The notes: generated by a model from the sequence alone, not told the origin. A DNA stretch of 62,956 bases, filler included, from 6 parts of 6 records of this genome joined end to end with filler, not necessarily neighbours in it, one strand, 5' to 3'. Shown: positions 6,924 through 57,425, counted from the whole stretch's first letter. A program made the numbers and translations.

Positions 6924-8273
6924 TTAGGCCTTATCCTCCGGCGTGCTGTTTTTATACCAGTCTACATTACGAGTGAGATACATCGAGGCAGCAAGCGCCA
7001 CGAACATCAGCGTAGTACCTGCAAGAAGCGCGAAATCTTCCATATTCAGCACACCATACAGGAAGCCAAGAAGCGCAGTTTGGGTAAGGCAAATGCCAAC
7101 CGTCCAACCACCTGATTTGGTGACCGAATAGGCATAGATGGTCACGAGCCCCACAATAAGCAGCGACGAGACGACATAAGCCGCCGTGAAGGCCATATGC
7201 TCCGCCAGCGACAAGAGGCCCATAAAAAACAGGCTAAGGGCAAGGCCGATCAGAATATATTGCACAGGGTGCACCTTGCGGCCCGAAACAACCTCAAACA
7301 GGTAGATCACCGCAAAGGTCAGCAGCACAAAAAGCGAACCGTATTTTACGCTGCGGTCTGTGAGGCTGTAGGTGTTGACGGGGTCAATAAAATTGACCGA
7401 CACAGTATTTGAGACTGGAAGCGGCATACTGCCCGCGAGTATCGGCCCGATGCCTTGCGCGAGGCGCAGCGTTTGCCACCTTGCCTCAAACCCTTCCGCT
7501 GTTACGGTGCGGTTAATTGGTGAAAAACGACCATGAAAACCCGGTGACGGCCAAGGTGAAGAAAGCTCGATATCGCTTGTGGTGCCGGAGGGCCAGATAT
7601 TGAGCGCTTCCATGCCGCGAAGGGAGAAACTGGCTTCCACAGCGAAGGTTGCGCCTGCGCCCATGCCTGCAGCCGAGGCATGCACCCCGCTTTGGTTGTG
7701 CTCAAGCCCAGTCGCGGGCTCAATAGGTACTGCCCTACCATTCACCGTCATCACAATGTCGCCCTGCAAGCCCTGCAGGTCACTGAGGTAAAGGCCAACG
7801 GTTGCCCCGCTCCAATCGAGCGCTGATTTTTCAACGCCCTGAAAATTTTCAGGAACAACGAAATCAGCGACCATGGTGAGGTTCGCCGTATAAACATTGC
7901 TGCTATAAAGCCCGAGGCTACGGCTTTCCACGTCTACCGCGCCTTTGGTGGTCAACTTCTCTGGTAATAGAACCAGTTGCCGCTTCAGCGTTACAAGCTC
8001 GCCGGTATTGCGAATTTTCTCAATTGCCTCATAGGGCACAATAAGGACAGGGCCACCAACGGTTTGTTCATGTCCCCAGATTTCACCAATTTTTATCTGG
8101 GCTTCACGGGCTCGTCCGGCGCGTTCATTCACCAGGCTACCAATCATCGAAAGCGGGATAAGCATGATCAACAGCATGAAACCGATAAGAACCGACTTCA
8201 CGCCATAGCCGTTAAGGAACTGCATAAAACGGCCACTTGTGTCGTTACTGTGGCTATCCCGGTTATCGCTCAT
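6924..8273 (-). CDS. creD: Inner membrane protein CreD
   Basis: GPVLIVPY, WPSPGFHGRFSP, RSVKYG, VHPVQYILIGLAL, LLSLAEH, TRNVDWY. Confidence 0.92.
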   Translation of the reverse strand: MSDNRDSHSNDTSGRFMQFLNGYGVKSVLIGFMLLIMLIPLSMIGSLVNERAGRAREAQIKIGEIWGHEQTVGGPVLIVPYEAIEKIRNTGELVTLKRQLVLLPEKLTTKGAVDVESRSLGLYSSNVYTANLTMVADFVVPENFQGVEKSALDWSGATVGLYLSDLQGLQGDIVMTVNGRAVPIEPATGLEHNQSGVHASAAGMGAGATFAVEASFSLRGMEALNIWPSGTTSDIELSSPWPSPGFHGRFSPINRTVTAEGFEARWQTLRLAQGIGPILAGSMPLPVSNTVSVNFIDPVNTYSLTDRSVKYGSLFVLLTFAVIYLFEVVSGRKVHPVQYILIGLALSLFFMGLLSLAEHMAFTAAYVVSSLLIVGLVTIYAYSVTKSGGWTVGICLTQTALLGFLYGVLNMEDFALLAGTTLMFVALAASMYLTRNVDWYKNSTPEDKA

Positions 8274-8339: not shown

Positions 8340-8897
8340 CTAAGCTTCAGGCGTCTCCGGCAATGCTGGGCCCATACGGGCAAGAGTGCCGTCTTTGAGG
8401 ATAAGCGTGTGATAGAGCACCCCCACCAAATGCAAGCCCACGAGCGCACTCAACACATACCAACCATAAACATGGATTTCCTCAAACAGGTGGTGAAGGT
8501 CCATATCGCGCGCGAACGGTGTCGGGATCACGGTTGCGCCAAACACGGTGATGTCCCACCCAACGGTTAAAAGCGTGAACATGCCCGCCAGCACCACCAG
8601 AAAAATAAGCGCATATATAAGCCCGTGTGCCACTTGTGCTATTTTTGCAATATACGCGGGCGTGCCTTCCTCCGGCTTTGGCGTATCGCCTGAGAGGCGA
8701 ACACCAAGGCGCAGCAGCATGAAGGCAAAGATCAGCGTGCCAAATGACATATGCAAGCGGATAAGCTCGTTTTTATCGTCCCCGCGCGGCATATCTGCGA
8801 ACACAAGGCCGAGCACCGATTGCCCAATAAGCGCGATAGCCAGAACCCAGTGCAAGGTTTTTGCAGGCCAGCCATAAGCATGTTTGGTGTTTTTCAT
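8340..8897 (-). CDS. Cytochrome b561 (di-heme, 4 TM)
   Basis: YGWPAKTLHW, LHMSFG, FEEIH, GLHLVGVLYH..KDGTLARM. Confidence 0.9.
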   Translation of the reverse strand: MKNTKHAYGWPAKTLHWVLAIALIGQSVLGLVFADMPRGDDKNELIRLHMSFGTLIFAFMLLRLGVRLSGDTPKPEEGTPAYIAKIAQVAHGLIYALIFLVVLAGMFTLLTVGWDITVFGATVIPTPFARDMDLHHLFEEIHVYGWYVLSALVGLHLVGVLYHTLILKDGTLARMGPALPETPEA

Positions 8898-8925
8898 CGG
8901 TGCTCTCCCTTTATTTGCCAGCGGG

Positions 8926-11004
8926 TTAGAAGCTTCCCGTCCAACTGATGCGTGCTTTCATGTTGCGGCCCGGGTCAACCACACCGGCAAACACGGTTTG
9001 CACTTCAGTATCAAACAGGTTGTCGACCCCTAGATCAATACGTAAACCCTTAAGCGTTTCCTTCGGCTGCCAGACAAGGAACAGGTCGACCGTCTCGTAA
9101 CCCGGGCGCTCGTCCGCCGCGTCGTTGACCTTGTCAAACCTGGCAGCGACATTGGCACGCGCACCGAAACGGGCGTCAATTTCCGGCACTTTCACTTCAC
9201 CAGAGAGATAAAGCCTGCTGGGCGCCAGCACACCAACATAATCGCCAGTGTCTTTATCCTTGCCGTCTACCGTGCTGTAGGATGCGATCAGGCGTATCCG
9301 CTCGCTGTTGTAGATGCCCTCAAGCTCAAAACCCTCAAGCTCTGCGCGGCCTGTGTTGATGTTGCGGCTGGTGCCTGCGTTACAAGTACCGGGCATGCCG
9401 GGCACGAAACACGGCAGTGAAAACTCAAAATTCACTTCAAGGTCGATGAGGTCTGTCACGTCAGACTTGAAGTAGGCGCCCTTGAGCGTGAAACGGTCAT
9501 CGCCTGCAAAAACCCCGGCAAAGTCCACGCCCGCACCAAACTCCCATGTTTTGGAACGCTCAGGCGCCAGGTCGGCGTTGGGGATAAAGAAGTTGGGCGC
9601 TTCAAGCCCTGGCCCAAGTGGGATGGTGAAGTGCAGGTCGTCTGCAAATATCTCGTTATATGAGGGCGCGCGGAAAGCTTCATTATAGCTGCCGAATACC
9701 ATGAACTCGTCAATCGGCCGCCATGTGGCCGCAACCTTTGGCGATGTTTTGCCTTCAGACGTTTCAACATTCTCGCCCACAGCGGTGTTCTTGAAATTGT
9801 CATACCGGAAGCCGGGAACCAGAATAAATTCACCGATACCGGTGTCTGCCACCAGTTCCCCCTGCACAAAAAGACCAAGGGTTTTGGCTGTGGCGTCCGG
9901 CACACCGCCGCGGCTACCGTCTGTGGTCGCGTTATCGGCGCCAACCTGCTCATCGCGGTAATATTCGCCGCCATACGTGAGCGTGAAACTGGTGTCGGTG
10001 CCGAAGTCAAAACGGCTGCGGTTATCGAAACTGATGCCCACCGTCTCCACATCACGGTTGATCACCCGGTCCGTATCAAGGTCACTTTCTTTCACGTTGG
10101 CTTTGTTCACATAACCGATGAGCGCAAAATTAACGAGGGTGCTTTCCGGGTTGAAGTCTAGCCCGGCGCGGAAGGTATCGCTCTTGATATCTTTCGCCAT
10201 CAGGTCGCCCGTATTGTTGCCAAGGCCGTTGTTCGGCTCAACCGCATCGTTGCGATAGCCAAGCCAGCTGCCGGAAAGCTTCAGCGCGTCGGACGCCTGA
10301 TAGCTCACCTTCGCGATGCCAGAGGCGATGCTGTCATCCGCTTGCAGGTTTGTGCTGTTGCCAAGGGATATATCACCCGAATCGCGCAGGCTAAGGCTTG
10401 CAACCGCATCAATCTTGCCGTCACTGCTGCGGCCAAAAAGCGTGGCACCGCGCAGCCACTCATCGTTCATGCCCTGATAGCCTGCGCTGAGGCGGTACCC
10501 GGCGTCAGCGTCCTCAGGCAGCAGGTCTGCCGCATCAACGGTGTTGAGCGTGATCACACCGCCGATGGCACCCGAACCATAAAGCGACGAACCACCGCCC
10601 CGTACAACCTCGGCTGACTTCAACAGATCAGGCTCGATGAAGAAACGCCCGTCATGGCCGGAGAGGAAACTTTGGCGCACACCGTCAAACAGCACCACAA
10701 CACCTTCGCCCGCCATACCGCGAATGGCTGGTGTTTGCCCGTTGCGGCGCGGACCACCATCAAACACAAGGCCCGGCACGGAAGCAAAGATGTCCGAGAT
10801 GCTGGAAGCTACAAGATCGTCAATCTCATCCCGCGAGACAACACTCACCGATGACGGCACTGAAAAAGCCTCAACAGGGTTTTTGGTAGCGCTGACCGTT
10901 ACTTCGGTAATATCAGCAGCCATTTCCGCCGCTGCCTGATGGGTTGCAAAGACAGAGAGGCCAGCCAGCAAGAGGGCATTTTTTTGTGCGCGGGTCATCA
11001 TCAT
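8926..11004 (-). CDS. TonB-dependent heme/hemoglobin receptor (HemR/HmuR-like)
   Basis: Plug IRG..GVRQSFLSGHDGRFF (plug His), FRAP...H...NADLAPE (FRAP/NPNL), terminal Phe; start at MMMTR after AGGA (track 11043). Confidence 0.88.
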   Translation of the reverse strand: MMMTRAQKNALLLAGLSVFATHQAAAEMAADITEVTVSATKNPVEAFSVPSSVSVVSRDEIDDLVASSISDIFASVPGLVFDGGPRRNGQTPAIRGMAGEGVVVLFDGVRQSFLSGHDGRFFIEPDLLKSAEVVRGGGSSLYGSGAIGGVITLNTVDAADLLPEDADAGYRLSAGYQGMNDEWLRGATLFGRSSDGKIDAVASLSLRDSGDISLGNSTNLQADDSIASGIAKVSYQASDALKLSGSWLGYRNDAVEPNNGLGNNTGDLMAKDIKSDTFRAGLDFNPESTLVNFALIGYVNKANVKESDLDTDRVINRDVETVGISFDNRSRFDFGTDTSFTLTYGGEYYRDEQVGADNATTDGSRGGVPDATAKTLGLFVQGELVADTGIGEFILVPGFRYDNFKNTAVGENVETSEGKTSPKVAATWRPIDEFMVFGSYNEAFRAPSYNEIFADDLHFTIPLGPGLEAPNFFIPNADLAPERSKTWEFGAGVDFAGVFAGDDRFTLKGAYFKSDVTDLIDLEVNFEFSLPCFVPGMPGTCNAGTSRNINTGRAELEGFELEGIYNSERIRLIASYSTVDGKDKDTGDYVGVLAPSRLYLSGEVKVPEIDARFGARANVAARFDKVNDAADERPGYETVDLFLVWQPKETLKGLRIDLGVDNLFDTEVQTVFAGVVDPGRNMKARISWTGSF

Positions 11005-11056
11005 GGGTTCCTGATCCTGAGTTTGTTTGGGTTTGAGGCTCAATGCATCGATAGTT

Positions 11057-11135
11057 GTTGCAATTGATTCTCATTTTTATTATCAGCGTCTTTATGCGAT
11101 TCAGTTTGCTAATGCAAGTAAGAATCATTATTATA
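11057..11135. promoter_or_regulatory. Two Fur-box-like sites in the receptor/DUF6607 divergent region
   Basis: GTTGCAATTGATTCTCATT (11057-11075; reverse complement 13/19 to AATGATAATCATTATCATT) and AGTAAGAATCATTATTATA (11117-11135; 14/19), counted by eye. Confidence 0.6.
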
Positions 11136-11162
11136 ATTGAAACACATTGGCGGGAACCAAAC

Positions 11163-12245
11163 ATGACATCTGTATCTTATCTAAGGCCCCTTAAGGCAGC
11201 AGTGGCACTTGCGGCTGGCCTTCTGCTCGCGGCATGTAACACCACTGGCCAGGGCGGTGGGCAATCTGTTGCACCGATGGCGGCGGCACCAACGATCTCA
11301 GCGGAAAAATTTGAAGCTGACCGCAGGGCTATCCTCGCCATGGTGGGCGACTATAAAGTGACATTCGACTTTCAGGAGACCGTGCCCTTCGTTGCAGGCT
11401 ATTCCCCGAAAGACCGATACGTTACCGGCGCGCACGAGATGGTGCGGGTGATTGAGGACACAGGCAGTTTCATCAGCCTGCAGCACATTCTTGTGGTGGG
11501 TGACGGCAAGGAAATGCCCTTCATGCCCATCAAACACTGGCGGCAGGACTGGCAGTTTGAGCCAACCGAGATCATAGATTTCATTGGCGCCAACACGTGG
11601 CAAAAACGGGAAGTAAGCGCAGCGGAGCGCGCGGGCAAATGGGCACAGGTGGTATATCAGGTTGATGATGCACCACGCTATGCCGCGGTTGCCGCGTGGG
11701 ACCATACCAACGGTATTGCATCCTGGACATCACCGCCAAGCTGGCGCCCGCTGCCCCGCCGTGACGCCACCAAGCGCGACGACTATCACGCAATTATCGC
11801 CAGCAATCGGCACGCCATTACACCAAACGGCTGGGTGCATGAGCAGGATAACGCCAAGCTGATCCTCACGGGCGATGCGCCGCAGGTGCTGGTGCATGAA
11901 ATTGGCGTGAACAGCTATACGCACTTTGATGACTTTGAAACCAAGCTCGGTACCGAATATTGGGAAAAAACCCAAGGATTCTGGCAAGCTATTCGTGACG
12001 AATGGACATCCCTGTTCGCGAATAACGACCGTGTCGGCCTCACAATTCAAGGCGAACCGGCGGAAATGTACATGCAGATCCTTGGTATCGCGACAGACGT
12101 GGAAACAGGAAAATCCACCACCGAAGCCGCGTCGAAGGAAGCGCTCAAGGTGCTGACAGAATATATCACCACCCAGCCGGGCGCTGTTGCCGACCGCCTG
12201 AAAGGCGAAACGGTTGAAGGTGGCGAAGCCTACAGCAGCCGCTAA
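11163..12245 (+). CDS. DUF6607-like exported lipoprotein
   Basis: Lipobox LLLAAC; QHIL, IKHWRQDW, VYQVDDAPRY, PLPRR, GWVHEQDNAK; clear homolog of 56526-57425. Confidence 0.8.
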   Translation: MTSVSYLRPLKAAVALAAGLLLAACNTTGQGGGQSVAPMAAAPTISAEKFEADRRAILAMVGDYKVTFDFQETVPFVAGYSPKDRYVTGAHEMVRVIEDTGSFISLQHILVVGDGKEMPFMPIKHWRQDWQFEPTEIIDFIGANTWQKREVSAAERAGKWAQVVYQVDDAPRYAAVAAWDHTNGIASWTSPPSWRPLPRRDATKRDDYHAIIASNRHAITPNGWVHEQDNAKLILTGDAPQVLVHEIGVNSYTHFDDFETKLGTEYWEKTQGFWQAIRDEWTSLFANNDRVGLTIQGEPAEMYMQILGIATDVETGKSTTEAASKEALKVLTEYITTQPGAVADRLKGETVEGGEAYSSR

Positions 12246-25941: not shown

Positions 25942-26137
25942 CATGCGCCTGCTGCCGATCATCGACCATATCCAGATCGCCGACAGGCCGGGCCGGCATG
26001 AGCCGGGCAGCGGCACCATCGATTTTCCGTCCGTGTTCACGGCCATCCGTTCGAGCGGTTACCCGGGTTGGGTGGGGGCGGAATACCTGCCGGCCGCCGG
26101 GACCAGCATGGGGCTTGGCTGGCGCGAGCGCGCCTGA
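25942..26137 (+). CDS. Hydroxypyruvate isomerase family, C-terminal fragment
   Basis: HIQIADRPGRHEPGSGTIDF, GYPGWVGAEY. Confidence 0.85.
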
Positions 26138-52353: not shown

Positions 52354-52800
52354 CTAAATTGGTCTTATCCAAACTAGAGGTTTCCATTTTTTATATTCCT
52401 TAAGAACTAAAGCAAGATTGATGGCAAAAAAGGCTAAGGTTTTTAGTAATTCTCCTGTTTCTTCCCTTTCCAAAAAATAATGAAACAGAAAAATATGTAG
52501 GGTTATAGGAAGTAAAAAAATAGCTCCTATAAAACTTGTTCCTTGGATAATTAATAAGAGTCCAAATAAAATCTCACAAATCCCCAATACCTGCCAAAAG
52601 TAGCCTGTTTGCTTTGCGCCACTTATATAAAGTATTTTTTGAAGGGTACTTTCCTTCTCTGGAGATGAGAATTTTTCGGCTTTCTGAAACACTTCAATTG
52701 GGGTAGGACTTGGTTGTTCAAACTTATGAATTCCTCCATAAATCATGAGTCCGCCTAAAAACAATCGAAGGATTATAAATAAAATACTAACTGCTTTCAT
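52354..52800 (-). CDS. DoxX family membrane protein
   Basis: LRLFLGGLMIYGGIHKF, EILFGLLL, LPITLHIFLFH; starts 1 nt after hmuY stop. Confidence 0.8.
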   Translation of the reverse strand: MKAVSILFIILRLFLGGLMIYGGIHKFEQPSPTPIEVFQKAEKFSSPEKESTLQKILYISGAKQTGYFWQVLGICEILFGLLLIIQGTSFIGAIFLLPITLHIFLFHYFLEREETGELLKTLAFFAINLALVLKEYKKWKPLVWIRPI

Positions 52801-52801
52801 C

Positions 52802-54286
52802 TTACAACAAATTATATTCAAATTTAGGATATCCACGCTCTCCACTTTCACTTAACAAAGCAGTAAAACGGATTTTATAATAATTTCCATCGGGGTCTTT
52901 GAGAACATAATATCTATCATTCTTTGCTACAGGCGTTGATGAAGAAGGTCCTGTTGTAGATCTCCATCCACTTCCTATAATATTCTTTTTATCAAATACT
53001 AATGAGTCTTCTATTACATCGCTCATCGTAAAATCTTCATAAGACTTTATTCCATCTTCTATCACTACTTCATATACCCCTGTCCCACCTAAAGTATTGT
53101 GTAAAACAAAATCTGAATAAGTAGTTCCAATTTCAGTTGCAAAAACTCCTGAAAAATTAAGATCCCATTCTGCTTTTGCTGGTTCTACAGATAATGCTTT
53201 ATTATTTGTCAAACTAAAAGCAGTACTGTTATATTGCGGAGTTTTACTTATTAACACCTCAGAATAATCCGTAGCATCTAAAGGCGCATATTTCAACTTG
53301 TAACTATCCCCTTCCATTGTAACTCTTATTTTGTACCACCCTCTATCTACAGACCCAGTATTTATCTTTCCTGGTTCTGCGGGTGTATCTTCAATTTCAG
53401 TTCCCATATAAACCAAATAAACTTTGTTCTCTTCATCATTTACAGCAATTTCGGATATTGCAGTTCCCTCTAATTCTCCTGTAGATGTATCAACATATGG
53501 TTCATACATTGAATACGAAACTTTTACTCCTACTTTATATTCTTCAACTGAATTTACGGTTACCTCTTTAAAAGATTGTGTAAATAAATCAAAACTATTT
53601 ATGACTAATGGTGGATCGAAAACTGTTGAGCTAGTTACCGCATTTATATCTGTAAACTGAGTTAATTCTGCTGCTGAAACTCTCAATGCAGGATTTAAAA
53701 ACACTCTATTTTCTGATCCAGAATAAAAAGCGAGCTCCCACGTATCTCTTTTAATTGGAGTCATTTTTTGAGAACTCAAATCAATAAATACTTGATTAGG
53801 ATATGTAGAACCTCCCCAATCTGGAGATAAAACCCCACCAAGAGCAGCGCTTTCTGTAAAACTAACCGCTAACGAAGTATTTCCTTGTATGCTACTTTCT
53901 GGATTTGAAATAGAAGCTAACTTAAAAGTAACCGACATTTCGGTTCCTTCAATTGGGTTTTGTAATTTATTAAGGGTAAAAGTCGCCGAATTACTCCCAG
54001 CGGTTACAGGAACTGTAATAGTACCCTCTTCCGATGCTGGATTGGTTGTAAAATGTGTGTCATATTCTGCATTTACCGTTGTGTAGGTAATTGTAGCCGT
54101 ACCGTTTTCTGCTGCGTTTCTAGAAAACACTAACTTAACTTCCTTTGTTTCTTCTTCCGTAGTTAAACTTACCGAAGGATTTTCGAAAGCTACTACAAAT
54201 TCTTGCGTAGTTTTAGTATCGTCATCACTACAGGATGCGAGTATAAATAAAACAAAGAGGTTTAAGATTAAAAACTTGTTTTTCAT
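52802..54286 (-). CDS. HmuY family lipoprotein with N-terminal Ig-like extension
   Basis: Lipobox LASC, WELAF, WDLNF, YYVLKDPDGNYYKIRF, GERGYPKFEY. Confidence 0.8.
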   Translation of the reverse strand: MKNKFLILNLFVLFILASCSDDDTKTTQEFVVAFENPSVSLTTEEETKEVKLVFSRNAAENGTATITYTTVNAEYDTHFTTNPASEEGTITVPVTAGSNSATFTLNKLQNPIEGTEMSVTFKLASISNPESSIQGNTSLAVSFTESAALGGVLSPDWGGSTYPNQVFIDLSSQKMTPIKRDTWELAFYSGSENRVFLNPALRVSAAELTQFTDINAVTSSTVFDPPLVINSFDLFTQSFKEVTVNSVEEYKVGVKVSYSMYEPYVDTSTGELEGTAISEIAVNDEENKVYLVYMGTEIEDTPAEPGKINTGSVDRGWYKIRVTMEGDSYKLKYAPLDATDYSEVLISKTPQYNSTAFSLTNNKALSVEPAKAEWDLNFSGVFATEIGTTYSDFVLHNTLGGTGVYEVVIEDGIKSYEDFTMSDVIEDSLVFDKKNIIGSGWRSTTGPSSSTPVAKNDRYYVLKDPDGNYYKIRFTALLSESGERGYPKFEYNLL

Positions 54287-54292
54287 GATTGT

Positions 54293-56413
54293 CTAGTTAA
54301 AATTTAAATTATATAATAGTTTTATAAAGTAGGATCTTCCGTACCCCAAGAGCACATTAGAGGGAGGTCCCGAATGCACCCCGCCACTCACAGATGTGCT
54401 GTTTACCCTAGTAACATCTAATAAATTTCTTGCACCAAGAGTTAGCTGAAGTTTGTTGTTGTAAAATGCCTTTCGTATCGACGCATCCCACCAACTATAC
54501 GCATCTTGTTTGCCTCTAATTAATATTGTTTCTCCATTTTCATCTTGATCTTGCAAAAACTGATATTCGGGTCCGTTGTGTTTAAAATATGTTGAAAAAG
54601 TGGTATTCCATTGAGGAACACTATAAGACAAACTTGCATTTAGTTGTAATGCCTTTAAATAATCGTCATCATAATTTCTCCCTTCTAAAACTTTAGAAAC
54701 TCCCGAGTAGGAAATTCCTAAATTCCCACTAATATTTTGATACATAAATCCATTAGAAAACGATACATTCCATGTTTTATATTTGTCAATATTAGTATAC
54801 TGATATGCTAAAGGAGAACTATTTACAATGATGAGTTCAATACGGTCGTCTACATCTATATATCCAACAGATAATTTGCTCCTTAAGCTGAAATTATTCT
54901 GAAACTCGAAGATTTTTTTAGCATGAATAAAAGCAGAAATTCCCTCTTCTGGTTTTAAGTCTTCATTACCTCGTACATCATGATTGGCATCTACGAAATA
55001 AGAATACAGCTCTGTAAAATTTGGCATTCTTGGCGCTGTACCTACAACCGCTCTAACCTCCATCTTATTTTTAAAAAGGTATTTAGAAGACAATTCTAAA
55101 GCGGTTTGCGTATCAAATTTGTTTGAAAAGAAAACCCGAGCTCCTGGTCGGAATGAAAGCCTACTATTTGGTACGTATTCTGCAGATGCAAACACATCAT
55201 AAGAGCCTATTTTTCTACGGATATTCTCTCCATCATAATCTCCAGAGATAGAAGAGGCATACCCTTCATTTTGACTAATCTCATAACCAACTTGAAAATC
55301 AAAGGCATTTTCATTTAAAAAATTACTAAACGTTCCTTTGGAATAGTATATGCTACGCGATTCGTATTCAAATTCTGCTATATCAAACTTTTCTTCTTCT
55401 AAAATTCTATAGTTATACGTTTCTGCATTTTTCTTTTGTTGCTGAAAAGAAAGCGAAACATTGTATAAAATTCCGCTATTAAAACTTCCGTTTGCATTTA
55501 AATGATGCATAAATCTTTGGGAAGTAAATATTTCGTCCGAAGAAATAGGATTTCGTGTTTGTGTGGAAGGGTTGTAATTTTCTCTTACTACGGAATCGTA
55601 ACGAGAAACTTTTTCATTAAAATATTCAAACTTGTAAAACATTTTCATGTTTTCAGCTTGATAGCTCAACATCCCTTTTGTGTTGTATTGCAATTTAGGA
55701 AGCCACTCATAGCCACGCTTTCCATCGTTATATTGATAACTTTCTCCCTGCTTATCTCCCCATAATCCTGCAAAATCGTTTCGTGTGGCAGTAATATTAG
55801 CATATAACTTTTCAGATATATTATTAGAAACACTTAACGATTGAATATGCCTTCCTTTATCAAACCACCCATACTCATCTCCAATGGTTTCTTCTTGTAA
55901 ATAGGGTCTTATTTGCCATTTGTAATTAGCCGATTTTTTGGTAATAATATTAATAACACCCGCAACGGCATCTGCTCCATATTGAACTCCCATGGCGCCC
56001 TCAACAATTTCAATCTGTTCAATATCATCTAAATTAATTTGCGTTAAATCGGTATTATTTCCAAAACCTTCATCGTTTACTAGCGGAATATTATCTACCA
56101 AAATTTTGACATATTGACCGTCTAAACCAAACATTTTTATACTTGATTTCCCAGTGGAAGCATTTGGAAGAATTGAAATATTTAAAGTCTGATTTAAAAC
56201 ATCTGCCAAATTGTTTCCTGCTTGACGATTTATGTCTGCTTGACTGATTACAGTAACTTCATAAACCGATTTTTTTACCGACTGCGGATTGTACTGTCCA
56301 GTAACTACTACTTCCTCCAAATCGTTTACTACTAAAGAATCCATTATTTGAACCTTTTGAGCAAAACCAAAGCTTACAGTTAAAAATAATATTAGGTATG
56401 TTAGTTGTTTCAT
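54293..56413 (-). CDS. TonB-dependent receptor, HmuR-like heme receptor
   Basis: EVVVTGQ, IEIVEGAMGV.YG..A..GVINIITK, PRMP...NH..GNEDLKPE (FRAP/His/NPNL-like); upstream of hmuY-like gene. Confidence 0.85.
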   Translation of the reverse strand: MKQLTYLILFLTVSFGFAQKVQIMDSLVVNDLEEVVVTGQYNPQSVKKSVYEVTVISQADINRQAGNNLADVLNQTLNISILPNASTGKSSIKMFGLDGQYVKILVDNIPLVNDEGFGNNTDLTQINLDDIEQIEIVEGAMGVQYGADAVAGVINIITKKSANYKWQIRPYLQEETIGDEYGWFDKGRHIQSLSVSNNISEKLYANITATRNDFAGLWGDKQGESYQYNDGKRGYEWLPKLQYNTKGMLSYQAENMKMFYKFEYFNEKVSRYDSVVRENYNPSTQTRNPISSDEIFTSQRFMHHLNANGSFNSGILYNVSLSFQQQKKNAETYNYRILEEEKFDIAEFEYESRSIYYSKGTFSNFLNENAFDFQVGYEISQNEGYASSISGDYDGENIRRKIGSYDVFASAEYVPNSRLSFRPGARVFFSNKFDTQTALELSSKYLFKNKMEVRAVVGTAPRMPNFTELYSYFVDANHDVRGNEDLKPEEGISAFIHAKKIFEFQNNFSLRSKLSVGYIDVDDRIELIIVNSSPLAYQYTNIDKYKTWNVSFSNGFMYQNISGNLGISYSGVSKVLEGRNYDDDYLKALQLNASLSYSVPQWNTTFSTYFKHNGPEYQFLQDQDENGETILIRGKQDAYSWWDASIRKAFYNNKLQLTLGARNLLDVTRVNSTSVSGGVHSGPPSNVLLGYGRSYFIKLLYNLNFN

Positions 56414-56477
56414 TATTTAGATTGATTCTGAATAATTTTATGACAAATATATAGTTATTTTTATTCAATCTAAATAA
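56413..56477. promoter_or_regulatory. Two oppositely oriented AT-rich dyad boxes (candidate Bacteroidota Fur boxes) flanking a TAnnTTTG promoter element
   Basis: TTATTTAGATTGATTCTGAATAA (56413-56435) and TTATTTTTATTCAATCTAAATAA (56455-56477); TATATTTG on minus strand at 56444-56451. Confidence 0.65.
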
Positions 56478-56525
56478 ATTTTATATTTTTGTTCCATCAG
56501 AAATGAAAAACTAATTATATCAACA

Positions 56526-57425
56526 ATGAAAAAATTATCAATTTTTATAGGCTTAACAATGGCGAGCCTTGCTGTAACAGCTCAAAAGCACGATAAAAGT
56601 GCGGATCAAAAAAACATTAAAGACATGTGTGGCTGTTATGAAGTACGTTTCAATTTTGCCGAAACATTTAACAACGCAAAAGATTCTACCTACCAAGCTT
56701 CCAAAGTAAAACAAGTAGGCGCTTTAGAATGGGTACAATTGGTAGAAGACAAACCCAATAAAATTGTAATGCAGCATTTATTAATTGCCAACGACACCAT
56801 GATTATTAAACATTGGAGGCAAGATTGGTTGTATGAAAACACCAATTTATATCAGTTTTATAAAGACAAAACATGGAAGTTTGAAAAATTGGCAAAAGAA
56901 GATGTAAAAGGGCAATGGACACAAAAAGTGTATCAAGTAGATGATAGTCCGCGTTATGAAGGCACCGCAAGTTGGGTACATGTTGACGGGAAAAATTATT
57001 GGGTAAACACCACCGATGCTCCTTTACCAAGAAGAGAACACACCGTTCGAGACGATTATAATGTTATGAAGCGTAGAAACATACATGCCATTACAGATTA
57101 CGGTTGGTTGCATGAACAGGATAATGATAAAATTATTAGAGACGATGAAGGAAATGATTTTGTATTAGCTCAAGAAAAAGGCTACGACACCTATACAAAA
57201 GTAGCTGATGAAAAATGTAAAGCAGCACAAGATTGGTGGAAAGAAAATGAAGCTTTCTGGAAAATTGTAAGAAATAAATGGCAAGACTTATTTGAGCAAA
57301 ACAAAGATATTGAGTTACAAAAAAGCGTTGACAACAAACCTTTATTTGCGCATTTATTTGCGATGCCTGCAAACAGTAGTAAAAAAGAAATTGAAGCAGT
57401 AATTGACAGCTTTATTGTGAAATAA
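56526..57425 (+). CDS. DUF6607-like exported protein
   Basis: Signal peptide; MCGCY, QHLL, IKHWRQDW, VYQVDDSPRY, PLPRR, GWLHEQDNDK; homolog of 11163-12245. Confidence 0.82.
   Translation: MKKLSIFIGLTMASLAVTAQKHDKSADQKNIKDMCGCYEVRFNFAETFNNAKDSTYQASKVKQVGALEWVQLVEDKPNKIVMQHLLIANDTMIIKHWRQDWLYENTNLYQFYKDKTWKFEKLAKEDVKGQWTQKVYQVDDSPRYEGTASWVHVDGKNYWVNTTDAPLPRREHTVRDDYNVMKRRNIHAITDYGWLHEQDNDKIIRDDEGNDFVLAQEKGYDTYTKVADEKCKAAQDWWKENEAFWKIVRNKWQDLFEQNKDIELQKSVDNKPLFAHLFAMPANSSKKEIEAVIDSFIVK

Follow-up and report, generated by a model that had tools for sequence, protein, structure and literature searches.

Two DUF6607 genes, each divergent from a TonB-dependent receptor gene

The window, as we call the whole stretch of DNA analysed (62,956 nucleotides), holds two genes for proteins of the Pfam family DUF6607 (PF20311), each lying head to head with the gene of a TonB-dependent receptor across a short spacer (Table 1). 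By GC content the window falls into three blocks: the first, at about 0.55, reaches to about 26 kb, the second, at about 0.63, to about 42 kb, and the rest is at about 0.34. The blocks meet near 26000 and 42000 and are contigs from different organisms, placed end to end. The gene in the first block is referred to as the alpha (alphaproteobacterial) copy and the one in the last block as the Bacteroidota copy. The nearest complete genome, G001, has 41% of the sampled words in common with the window, and the alpha locus is present there. As to the start of the alpha protein, homologues of 355-361 aa span 100% of it from the ATG at 11163.

A first-pass annotation of this DNA had proposed that the two proteins are homologous, exported and paired with divergent haem receptors, and the two open reading frames do exist as it described them, with a receptor gene divergent from each. 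By BLASTP the proteins are 36% identical over 274 columns (E 3e-61), and a search with hidden Markov models (HMMs) assigned both to PF20311, the alpha copy with an E of 3.6e-71 (240.2 bits) and the Bacteroidota copy with an E of 1.2e-101 (340.3 bits; gathering cut-off 27). The motifs quoted for the pair (QHIL/QHLL, IKHWRQDW, VYQVDDxPRY, PLPRR and HAIT..GW.HEQDN.K) are visible in their alignment; the histidines in common, counted as four at the time, number five. The closest relatives of the alpha copy are Kordiimonas proteins (74% identity to that of K. aestuarii), and the Bacteroidota copy is 90% identical to a protein of Joostella (Flavobacteriaceae).

The database names of the listed DUF6607 homologues carry no function (DUF6607, hypothetical, lipoprotein, secreted protein and one DKNYY label), and a literature search found no publication naming 'DUF6607' or 'PF20311'. 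The link to a characterised protein surfaced only through a fold search. For the alpha protein, an AlphaFold2 model that drew on 55 diverse members of the family reached a predicted local distance difference test score (pLDDT) of 90.3 and a predicted template-modelling score (pTM) of 0.84. Its top match in the PDB was 8XJC (Foldseek E 7e-29, TMt 0.91, 34% identity), which is the haemophore RhuH of Riemerella anatipestifer, and VIA-align superposed 272 of 278 residues with a Z of 34.0 and a root-mean-square deviation of 2.1 A, the runner-up having a Z of 10.7. The predicted alpha fold agrees with 8XJC in an N-terminal beta-barrel-like domain with C-terminal helices around it, and phmmer against the 8xjc chain gave an E of 3.6e-53 for the alpha copy and 2.3e-85 for the Bacteroidota copy. 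Judged by their sequences, both window proteins are members of the RhuH haemophore family. The second-tier fold matches of the alpha model (Z 8-11, Foldseek E about 1e-4) were small barrels for tetrapyrroles or other ligands, namely nitrobindins, Rv2717c, phycobilin lyases and polyketide spirocyclases. Nitrobindins and Rv2717c share with it a similar barrel topology and a haem held by a proximal histidine (Z 9-9.5, Foldseek TMt about 0.5), but they are cytosolic proteins of about 150 residues that have no C-terminal helical domain, no receptor linkage and only 6-10% identity, and the likeness may reflect only the common barrel.

RhuH (B739_1415; PDB 8XJC) was characterised in 2025 (Wang et al., Adv Sci 2025, PMC11967795). 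According to the main text of that report, rhuH is divergent from rhuR-rhuA across a 122-bp bidirectional promoter with a Fur box, which is given there as positions and not as sequence; the gene is induced under iron limitation and in a fur mutant, and growth on haemoglobin or hemin requires it. The protein lacks a membrane anchor and is released in outer-membrane vesicles. Its dissociation constant (Kd) for haem, of which it binds one molecule, is 3.4e-11 M; it strips haem from haemoglobin and prefers haem about a million-fold over protoporphyrin IX; the replacement H96A brings the Kd to 2e-5 M, an affinity drop of about a million-fold. A holo AlphaFold3 model places His96 on the iron and R143, Y144, R170, R183 and Q198 on the propionates. 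Dimerisation, to which Glu160 belongs, was dispensable. The homologues were placed 'predominantly in Weeksellaceae and Flavobacteriaceae', and the words 'Proteobacteria', 'lipoprotein' and 'DUF' do not occur in the main text (PMC11967795).

These data overturn the earlier view that the family had no assigned function. With it goes the idea that the component is of a new kind, because the family has been characterised through RhuH; the new part that is left is a proteobacterial branch, lipidated by prediction, of a known family. The core of the proposal, an iron-repressed, exported haem binder acting with the receptor, has been shown for RhuH, as the main text of PMC11967795 describes, and probably holds for the window proteins too: both keep the axial histidine and most of the haem contacts, and two independent censuses show a strong linkage to haem-type receptors. 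Modelled on RhuH, a member of the family would be an exported beta-barrel with helices, holding one haem through a single proximal histidine with the propionates buried against Arg, Tyr and Gln.

Table 1. Features of the two DUF6607 loci, with positions in the window.
Feature	Position	Strand	Length and remarks	Basis
DUF6607/RhuH-family protein, alphaproteobacterial copy, predicted outer-membrane lipoprotein	11163..12245	+	360 aa	PF20311, AlphaFold2 model, 8XJC match
Signal peptide and lipobox LLLAAC	11163..11237	+	predicted lipidation at Cys25, Asn at +2	regular expression, ALAAGLLLAAC
Divergent promoter spacer, alpha	11044..11162		119 nt; extends to 11005 (158 nt) if the receptor ATG is at 11004
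Fur-box-like site 1	11060..11084		two overlapping 19-mers	13/19 and 14/19 to consensus
Fur-box-like site 2	11114..11138		two overlapping 19-mers; overlaps promoter-like site	each 13/19 to consensus
Sigma-70-like promoter match toward DUF6607 gene	11106..11134	+	TTGCTA-17-TATTAT	consensus match only
TonB-dependent haem receptor, ShuA/HemR type	8926..11043	-		TIGR01785, ShuA 3fhh, plug and barrel Pfam domains
Cytochrome b561 family inner-membrane protein	8340..8897	-	28 nt past receptor, same strand	PF01292 E 5.6e-26
RhuH orthologue (Flavobacteriaceae, Joostella-like)	56526..57425	+	299 aa, signal peptide without lipobox	PF20311, 8xjc match
Divergent spacer, Bacteroidota	56414..56525		112 nt, with inverted pair of 17-nt element (candidate operator)
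TonB-dependent receptor in RhuR position	54293..56413	-		plug and barrel domains, gene order
HmuY-domain protein in RhuA position	52802..54286	-	6 nt past receptor	PF14064 E 4.4e-21
DoxX-family membrane protein	52354..52851	-	50-nt overlap with end of HmuY-like gene	PF07681 E 2.2e-6

Haem-pocket residues, predicted lipid anchor and branches of the family

Pocket residues were counted by hand on alignments to 8xjc and then checked in the window proteins. The axial His96 of RhuH, which sits in the KHWRQDW motif, corresponds to H125 of the alpha copy and to H96 of the Bacteroidota copy, and it is kept in 388 of 390 aligned family members (120/120, 148/150 and 120/120 in the three sets). Among the propionate contacts, R143/Y144, R170 and Q198 of RhuH appear as R172/Y173, R200 and Q228 in the alpha copy; the Bacteroidota copy keeps His96, R143, Y144, R170, R183 and Q198, all at the RhuH numbering. 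The column of R183 separates the two kinds of sequence: flavobacterial-type proteins have Arg in 120/120, with Ile or Val three residues on, and alpha-type proteins have Ala in 120/120, with Arg three residues on (216 in the alpha copy) in 117/120. We infer from this clade-wide exchange that Arg216 may be a relocated propionate clamp of the alpha branch. The dimer residue Glu160 is not kept, its place being taken by Val160 in the Bacteroidota copy and by Thr189 in the alpha copy.

The N-terminus of the alpha copy carries a lipobox found by regular expression, as the first-pass annotation had noticed, so that the protein is predicted to be a lipoprotein; the other copy has a hydrophobic leader in which the same search found no lipobox. 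Among close alpha homologues, 112 of 120 carry a lipobox versus 4 of 119 flavobacterial ones, and so do 41 of 138 diverse representatives. None of the DUF6607 sequences checked has Asp at +2.

The family comprises at least 888 clusters at 50% identity (E <= 1e-3). A member is encoded in 13 of the 401 Pseudomonadota genomes sampled and in 0 of 14 control genomes. A FastTree phylogeny was made of 157 of 162 DUF6607 sequences, five with stops inside the tblastn match being dropped; with a midpoint root, it sets the flavobacterial and proteobacterial sets apart, the latter with a support of 1.0. Gene order tracks the protein tree in the proteobacterial half, where one clade is co-directional in 16/16, another divergent in 13/13 and a third made up of 23 divergent loci and 8 of unknown order, and the two receptor types are interleaved in the flavobacterial half. 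This comparison of tree with gene order is a description and not a test, since related sequences share labels. On this evidence the alpha copy belongs to a large proteobacterial branch, predicted to be lipidated, which lies beyond the order named in the main text of PMC11967795. One family representative, P0121 (673 aa), contains two DUF6607 stretches in one protein, a tandem duplication or fusion.

Receptors, spacers and gene neighbourhoods

The alpha receptor scores 437.7 bits on the NCBIfam haem-receptor model TIGR01785, above the cut-off of 316.85, and matches ShuA (3fhh) over its full length (E 1.6e-83, residues 48-701); its match to HasR is confined to the plug domain. Haem receptors of the HemR/HmuR type are marked by FRAP and NPNL boxes with a histidine between them, and the first-pass annotation had ascribed these motifs, and the haem-receptor class, to both receptors of the window. 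For the alpha receptor the class assignment stood, as did FRAP (at residue 457) and the His after it; the second box reads NADL (at 489) where the motif has NPNL, the consensus of 36 relatives being NPDL. Neither part held for the Bacteroidota receptor, which contains neither FRAP nor NPNL (it reads PRMP...H...NEDL) and scores 88.4 bits on TIGR01785, through the plug domain only and below the cut-off; it is classed as RhuR-like by gene order alone. In G001, 86 stretches from roughly 50 receptor genes match TIGR01785, and the one above the cut-off is the neighbour of the single DUF6607 gene.

Each spacer had also been credited with two Fur-like dyads. We scored 19-mers against the enterobacterial Fur consensus, with a threshold of at least 13/19. 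The alpha spacer contains 4 of the 7 such matches in the 26-kb alpha block, and two of them overlap the promoter-like site that faces the DUF6607 gene; sigma-70-like promoter matches as such number 2 in the region versus 2.7 expected. The other half of the claim failed, as the Bacteroidota spacer contains no match of 13/19 or better. Instead, a conserved element, TTATTYAATCTAAATAA, is common to the flavobacterial DUF6607-receptor spacers (among loci L082-L160), with either of two receptor types, and the window spacer carries it as an inverted pair, 56413-56429(-) and 56461-56477(+). With up to three mismatches, the element has 4 matches in the whole window versus 0.31 expected, and 2 of the 4 are in the Bacteroidota spacer. 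The inverted pair is a candidate operator in sequence terms, with no regulator assigned to it. In the DUF6607-receptor spacers the element is accompanied by TAnnTTTG, which we take to be the -7 box of Bacteroidota-type promoters.

The Fur-like matches of the alpha spacer have counterparts in related genomes. In divergent proteobacterial loci, the best match to the Fur consensus of the locus, ties included, falls in the spacer in 19 of 33. At 13/19 or better, 11 of 25 DUF6607-receptor spacers contain a match versus 4 of 118 other intergenic regions of the same loci, at AT contents of 0.49 and 0.46, respectively.

The census of proteobacterial-type neighbourhoods covered the best 80 of at least 600 matches in species-representative genomes, mostly of Alphaproteobacteria and also of Gammaproteobacteria, Betaproteobacteria and bins of Planctomycetota, Hydrogenedentota and Thermodesulfobacteriota. 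A receptor above the TIGR01785 cut-off lies within 1.1 kb of the DUF6607 gene in 50 of these 80 loci, divergent in 31 and upstream on the same strand in 19. An HMM built from the 50 recognised a haem-type receptor, cut by a contig end or frameshifted, in a further 8, bringing the adjacent haem-type receptors to 58 of 80; this is in line with the linkage that the first-pass annotation expected a census to reveal. Three more loci have less than 300 nt upstream. Among the 19 others, L019, L020 and L030 adjoin another receptor type, and L077 lies amid genes for a siderophore-interacting protein, FecCD and ABC proteins, with a haem-type receptor 3.5 kb off. No generally conserved third gene was found around the DUF6607-receptor pair in these loci, the largest neighbour cluster being a histidine kinase (11/80), followed by unrelated housekeeping genes, and no HmuT/HemS-type partner was seen beside the module.

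Relatives of the cytochrome b561 gene that follows the alpha receptor are near the module in 6 of the 80 loci, past the receptor in L002, L003 and L009 and past DUF6607 in L004, L011 and L017. As a guess, the linked cytochrome b561 might perform a redox step on haem or iron at the periplasmic side. Downstream of the cytochrome b561 gene in the window, on the same strand, lies a gene for the inner-membrane protein CreD (6924-8273(-), PF06123 E 9.5e-128), for which no link to the module was seen in related loci. In L004 (5174-5704(-)), L009 (3685-4170(-)) and L015 (5200-5670(-)), small soluble proteins of 156-176 aa with a WAFRA motif are encoded directly past the haem receptor; no Pfam family matched them at 1e-6, and they lack hydrophobic segments.

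The flavobacterial census comprised 80 metagenome loci. A close relative of the Bacteroidota receptor of the window was present in 22 of them, followed by an HmuY-like gene in 19 of the 22, and 32 had a different receptor type, of which four checked scored 158-176 bits on TIGR01785, under the cut-off. The remaining 26 have no adjacent receptor, and 10 of these have less than 400 nt upstream; the other 16 have among their neighbours a recurrent pair of ankyrin and DUF2271 proteins, a Fur gene, KatG, PepSY-flavodoxin reductases, a SOUL haem-binding protein and other receptors. DoxX relatives, like the one that ends the Bacteroidota locus of the window, are near DUF6607 in 10 of the 80 (L082, L101, L103, L107, L108, L109, L113, L135, L140 and L144). 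In the receptor-less loci L127, L129, L134, L137 and L154 (L136 too, judging by size), DUF6607 is followed by the gene of an ankyrin-repeat protein of about 490 aa and then, where the sequence extends that far, by that of a periplasmic DUF2271 protein. L127 has a Fur gene divergent from DUF6607, and in one locus, L140 (2324-2920(+)), a SOUL haem-binding-domain protein is encoded directly past DUF6607.

Proposed role of the alphaproteobacterial protein

With its orthologous DUF6607 protein and its gene order, the Bacteroidota locus amounts to an ordinary orthologue of rhuH / rhuR-rhuA, a system already published and known. The alpha locus is a variant of it, as far as can be read from the DNA: lipid-anchored by prediction, with a ShuA-type receptor, no RhuA-like gene and a moved arginine. 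The alpha copy resembles RhuH in Pfam family, predicted fold (Z 34), axial histidine and four of five propionate contacts, and each is encoded head to head with a TonB-dependent receptor; the spacer between the two genes measures about 110-160 nt and, at the alpha locus, contains candidate Fur sites. It differs in having a lipobox, which is missing in RhuH, released in vesicles according to the main text of PMC11967795, and missing in the Bacteroidota copy just as in RhuH. Further differences, at about 34% identity, are Ala213 for Arg183 with an arginine at R216, Thr189 for Glu160, a partner receptor of the ShuA type and not the RhuR type, the lack of a RhuA-like gene and the presence of a cytochrome b561 gene past the receptor.

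We therefore regard the alpha protein as, in good probability, a lipoprotein of the RhuH family that captures haem, is regulated by iron and serves the ShuA-type receptor. Family membership, predicted fold, ligand residues, gene linkage and Fur-like sites are the observed basis of this proposal; from them we infer haem binding, iron regulation, lipidation, the membrane face and hand-over to the receptor. When iron is scarce, repression by Fur would be lifted and both the alpha DUF6607 gene and the receptor gene would be expressed. The lipoprotein, anchored in the outer membrane, would take free or protein-bound haem via His125 and hand it to the ShuA-type receptor, which would import it with TonB energy.

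Several points weigh against this proposal. For the proteobacterial copy, iron regulation, surface exposure, lipidation and the binding of haem are all predictions, and the RhuH contacts used as reference come themselves from an AlphaFold3 model and not from a holo crystal, according to the main text of PMC11967795. RhuH as described there is unanchored and released in vesicles, and the alpha lipoprotein may instead sit on the periplasmic face. The fifth modelled contact, R183, is Ala213 in the alpha copy and Ala in all 120 close homologues. The best Fur-like matches of the alpha spacer reach just 13-14/19, to a consensus that is enterobacterial; the Bacteroidota receptor stays below the TIGR01785 cut-off, matching it in the plug domain only; and 19 of the 80 proteobacterial-type loci have no adjacent haem-type receptor. 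In addition, G001 yielded no HemS, PF01126 haem oxygenase or HutW above cut-off, these being the three families searched, so that an IsdG-like or HugZ-like enzyme is possible, and it contains a ferrochelatase and so makes its own haem. Because of these two findings, the use of imported haem is not visible in G001.

The protein could act on the other side of the membrane, as a periplasm-facing haem shuttle on the inner leaflet of the outer membrane that takes haem from the receptor after import and serves as a carrier or buffer. Most proteobacterial outer-membrane lipoproteins face the periplasm, and the alpha copy has no recognisable surface-export feature, an arrangement unlike that of the anchor-less RhuH; the module has no HmuT/HemS-type partner beside it, nor was HemS found in G001. 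Yet the haem-pocket residues are the same as in a relative that works outside the cell and strips haem from haemoglobin (main text of PMC11967795), and an affinity like that of RhuH, with a Kd in the 1e-11 M range, would if retained suit capture over hand-on. We consider the shuttle unlikely.

It seemed still less probable, and indeed quite improbable, that the family member binds another ligand (a bilin, a corrinoid or a product of chlorophyll breakdown) or plays a redox or nitric oxide role like that of nitrobindins, the substrate of the receptor not being haem. The near-invariant axial histidine speaks against this, as do the roughly million-fold preference of RhuH for haem over protoporphyrin IX reported in PMC11967795 and a partner receptor that passes TIGR01785 and matches ShuA full-length; the idea draws on the appearance of nitrobindins, phycobilin lyases and polyketide spirocyclases among the second-tier folds (Z 8-11), on the one propionate contact that has moved, on the 19/80 loci without a haem-type receptor and on the flavobacterial relatives, which pair with two receptor types. 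The first-pass annotation had also envisaged haem processing, that is, an enzyme that degrades or modifies haem outside the cytoplasm and so frees its iron. No cytoplasmic haem-degrading enzyme was found in G001, and a cytochrome b561 gene comes next after the receptor, both of which would fit; the former is weak evidence, only three haem-degradation families having been searched, and a single His ligand with propionate clamps makes a carrier-like pocket. RhuH binds and extracts haem, with no catalysis reported in the consulted sections of PMC11967795, and we found no support for an enzymatic role, to which we give hardly any credence.

A capturing lipoprotein that serves the alpha receptor has analogues among unrelated systems. 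HmuY of Porphyromonas gingivalis is likewise an iron-regulated, lipid-anchored haem binder beside a TonB-dependent receptor, HmuR, which it is thought to feed (PMC11967795, as far as its main text goes, and general knowledge), but its fold and sequence are unrelated, it uses two His ligands and its gene is co-transcribed with that of the receptor and not divergent from it; within the window, an HmuY-domain protein is encoded only at the Bacteroidota locus. HasA/HasR and HphA follow the same logic, in that a haem carrier of high affinity works outside the cell and supplies a TonB-dependent receptor of its own, with Fur as the regulator, yet they differ in fold and secretion route and, going by the main text of PMC11967795, have no sequence relation to RhuH (8-9% identity).

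Through RhuH, DUF6607, listed in Pfam as being of unknown function, gains an experimentally grounded function, and a haemophore presented in the main text of PMC11967795 as unique to Flavobacteriales has a large proteobacterial lipoprotein branch tied to standard haem receptors. We lean, by a little, towards a broader picture in which RhuH-type carriers are a widespread and anciently split family. Its proteobacterial branch, found also in bins of Planctomycetota, Hydrogenedentota and Thermodesulfobacteriota, would be lipid-anchored and attached to ShuA-type receptors, with the propionate clamp re-wired from Arg183 to Arg216; in free-living marine Alphaproteobacteria, Kordiimonas, Hyphomonadaceae and Parvularculaceae among them, the protein would stay bound to the cell and scavenge dissolved or particulate haem, possibly together with cytochrome b561. 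The clade-specific arginine swap and the difference between anchored and released forms provide a natural experiment on the haem pocket and on delivery. For non-pathogenic marine and soil bacteria, the finding points to a dedicated haem-capture step ahead of the receptor and bears on the recycling of haem iron in the sea; if the proposal is true, the scavenger of the alpha branch would be an unrecognised piece of marine haem-iron uptake.

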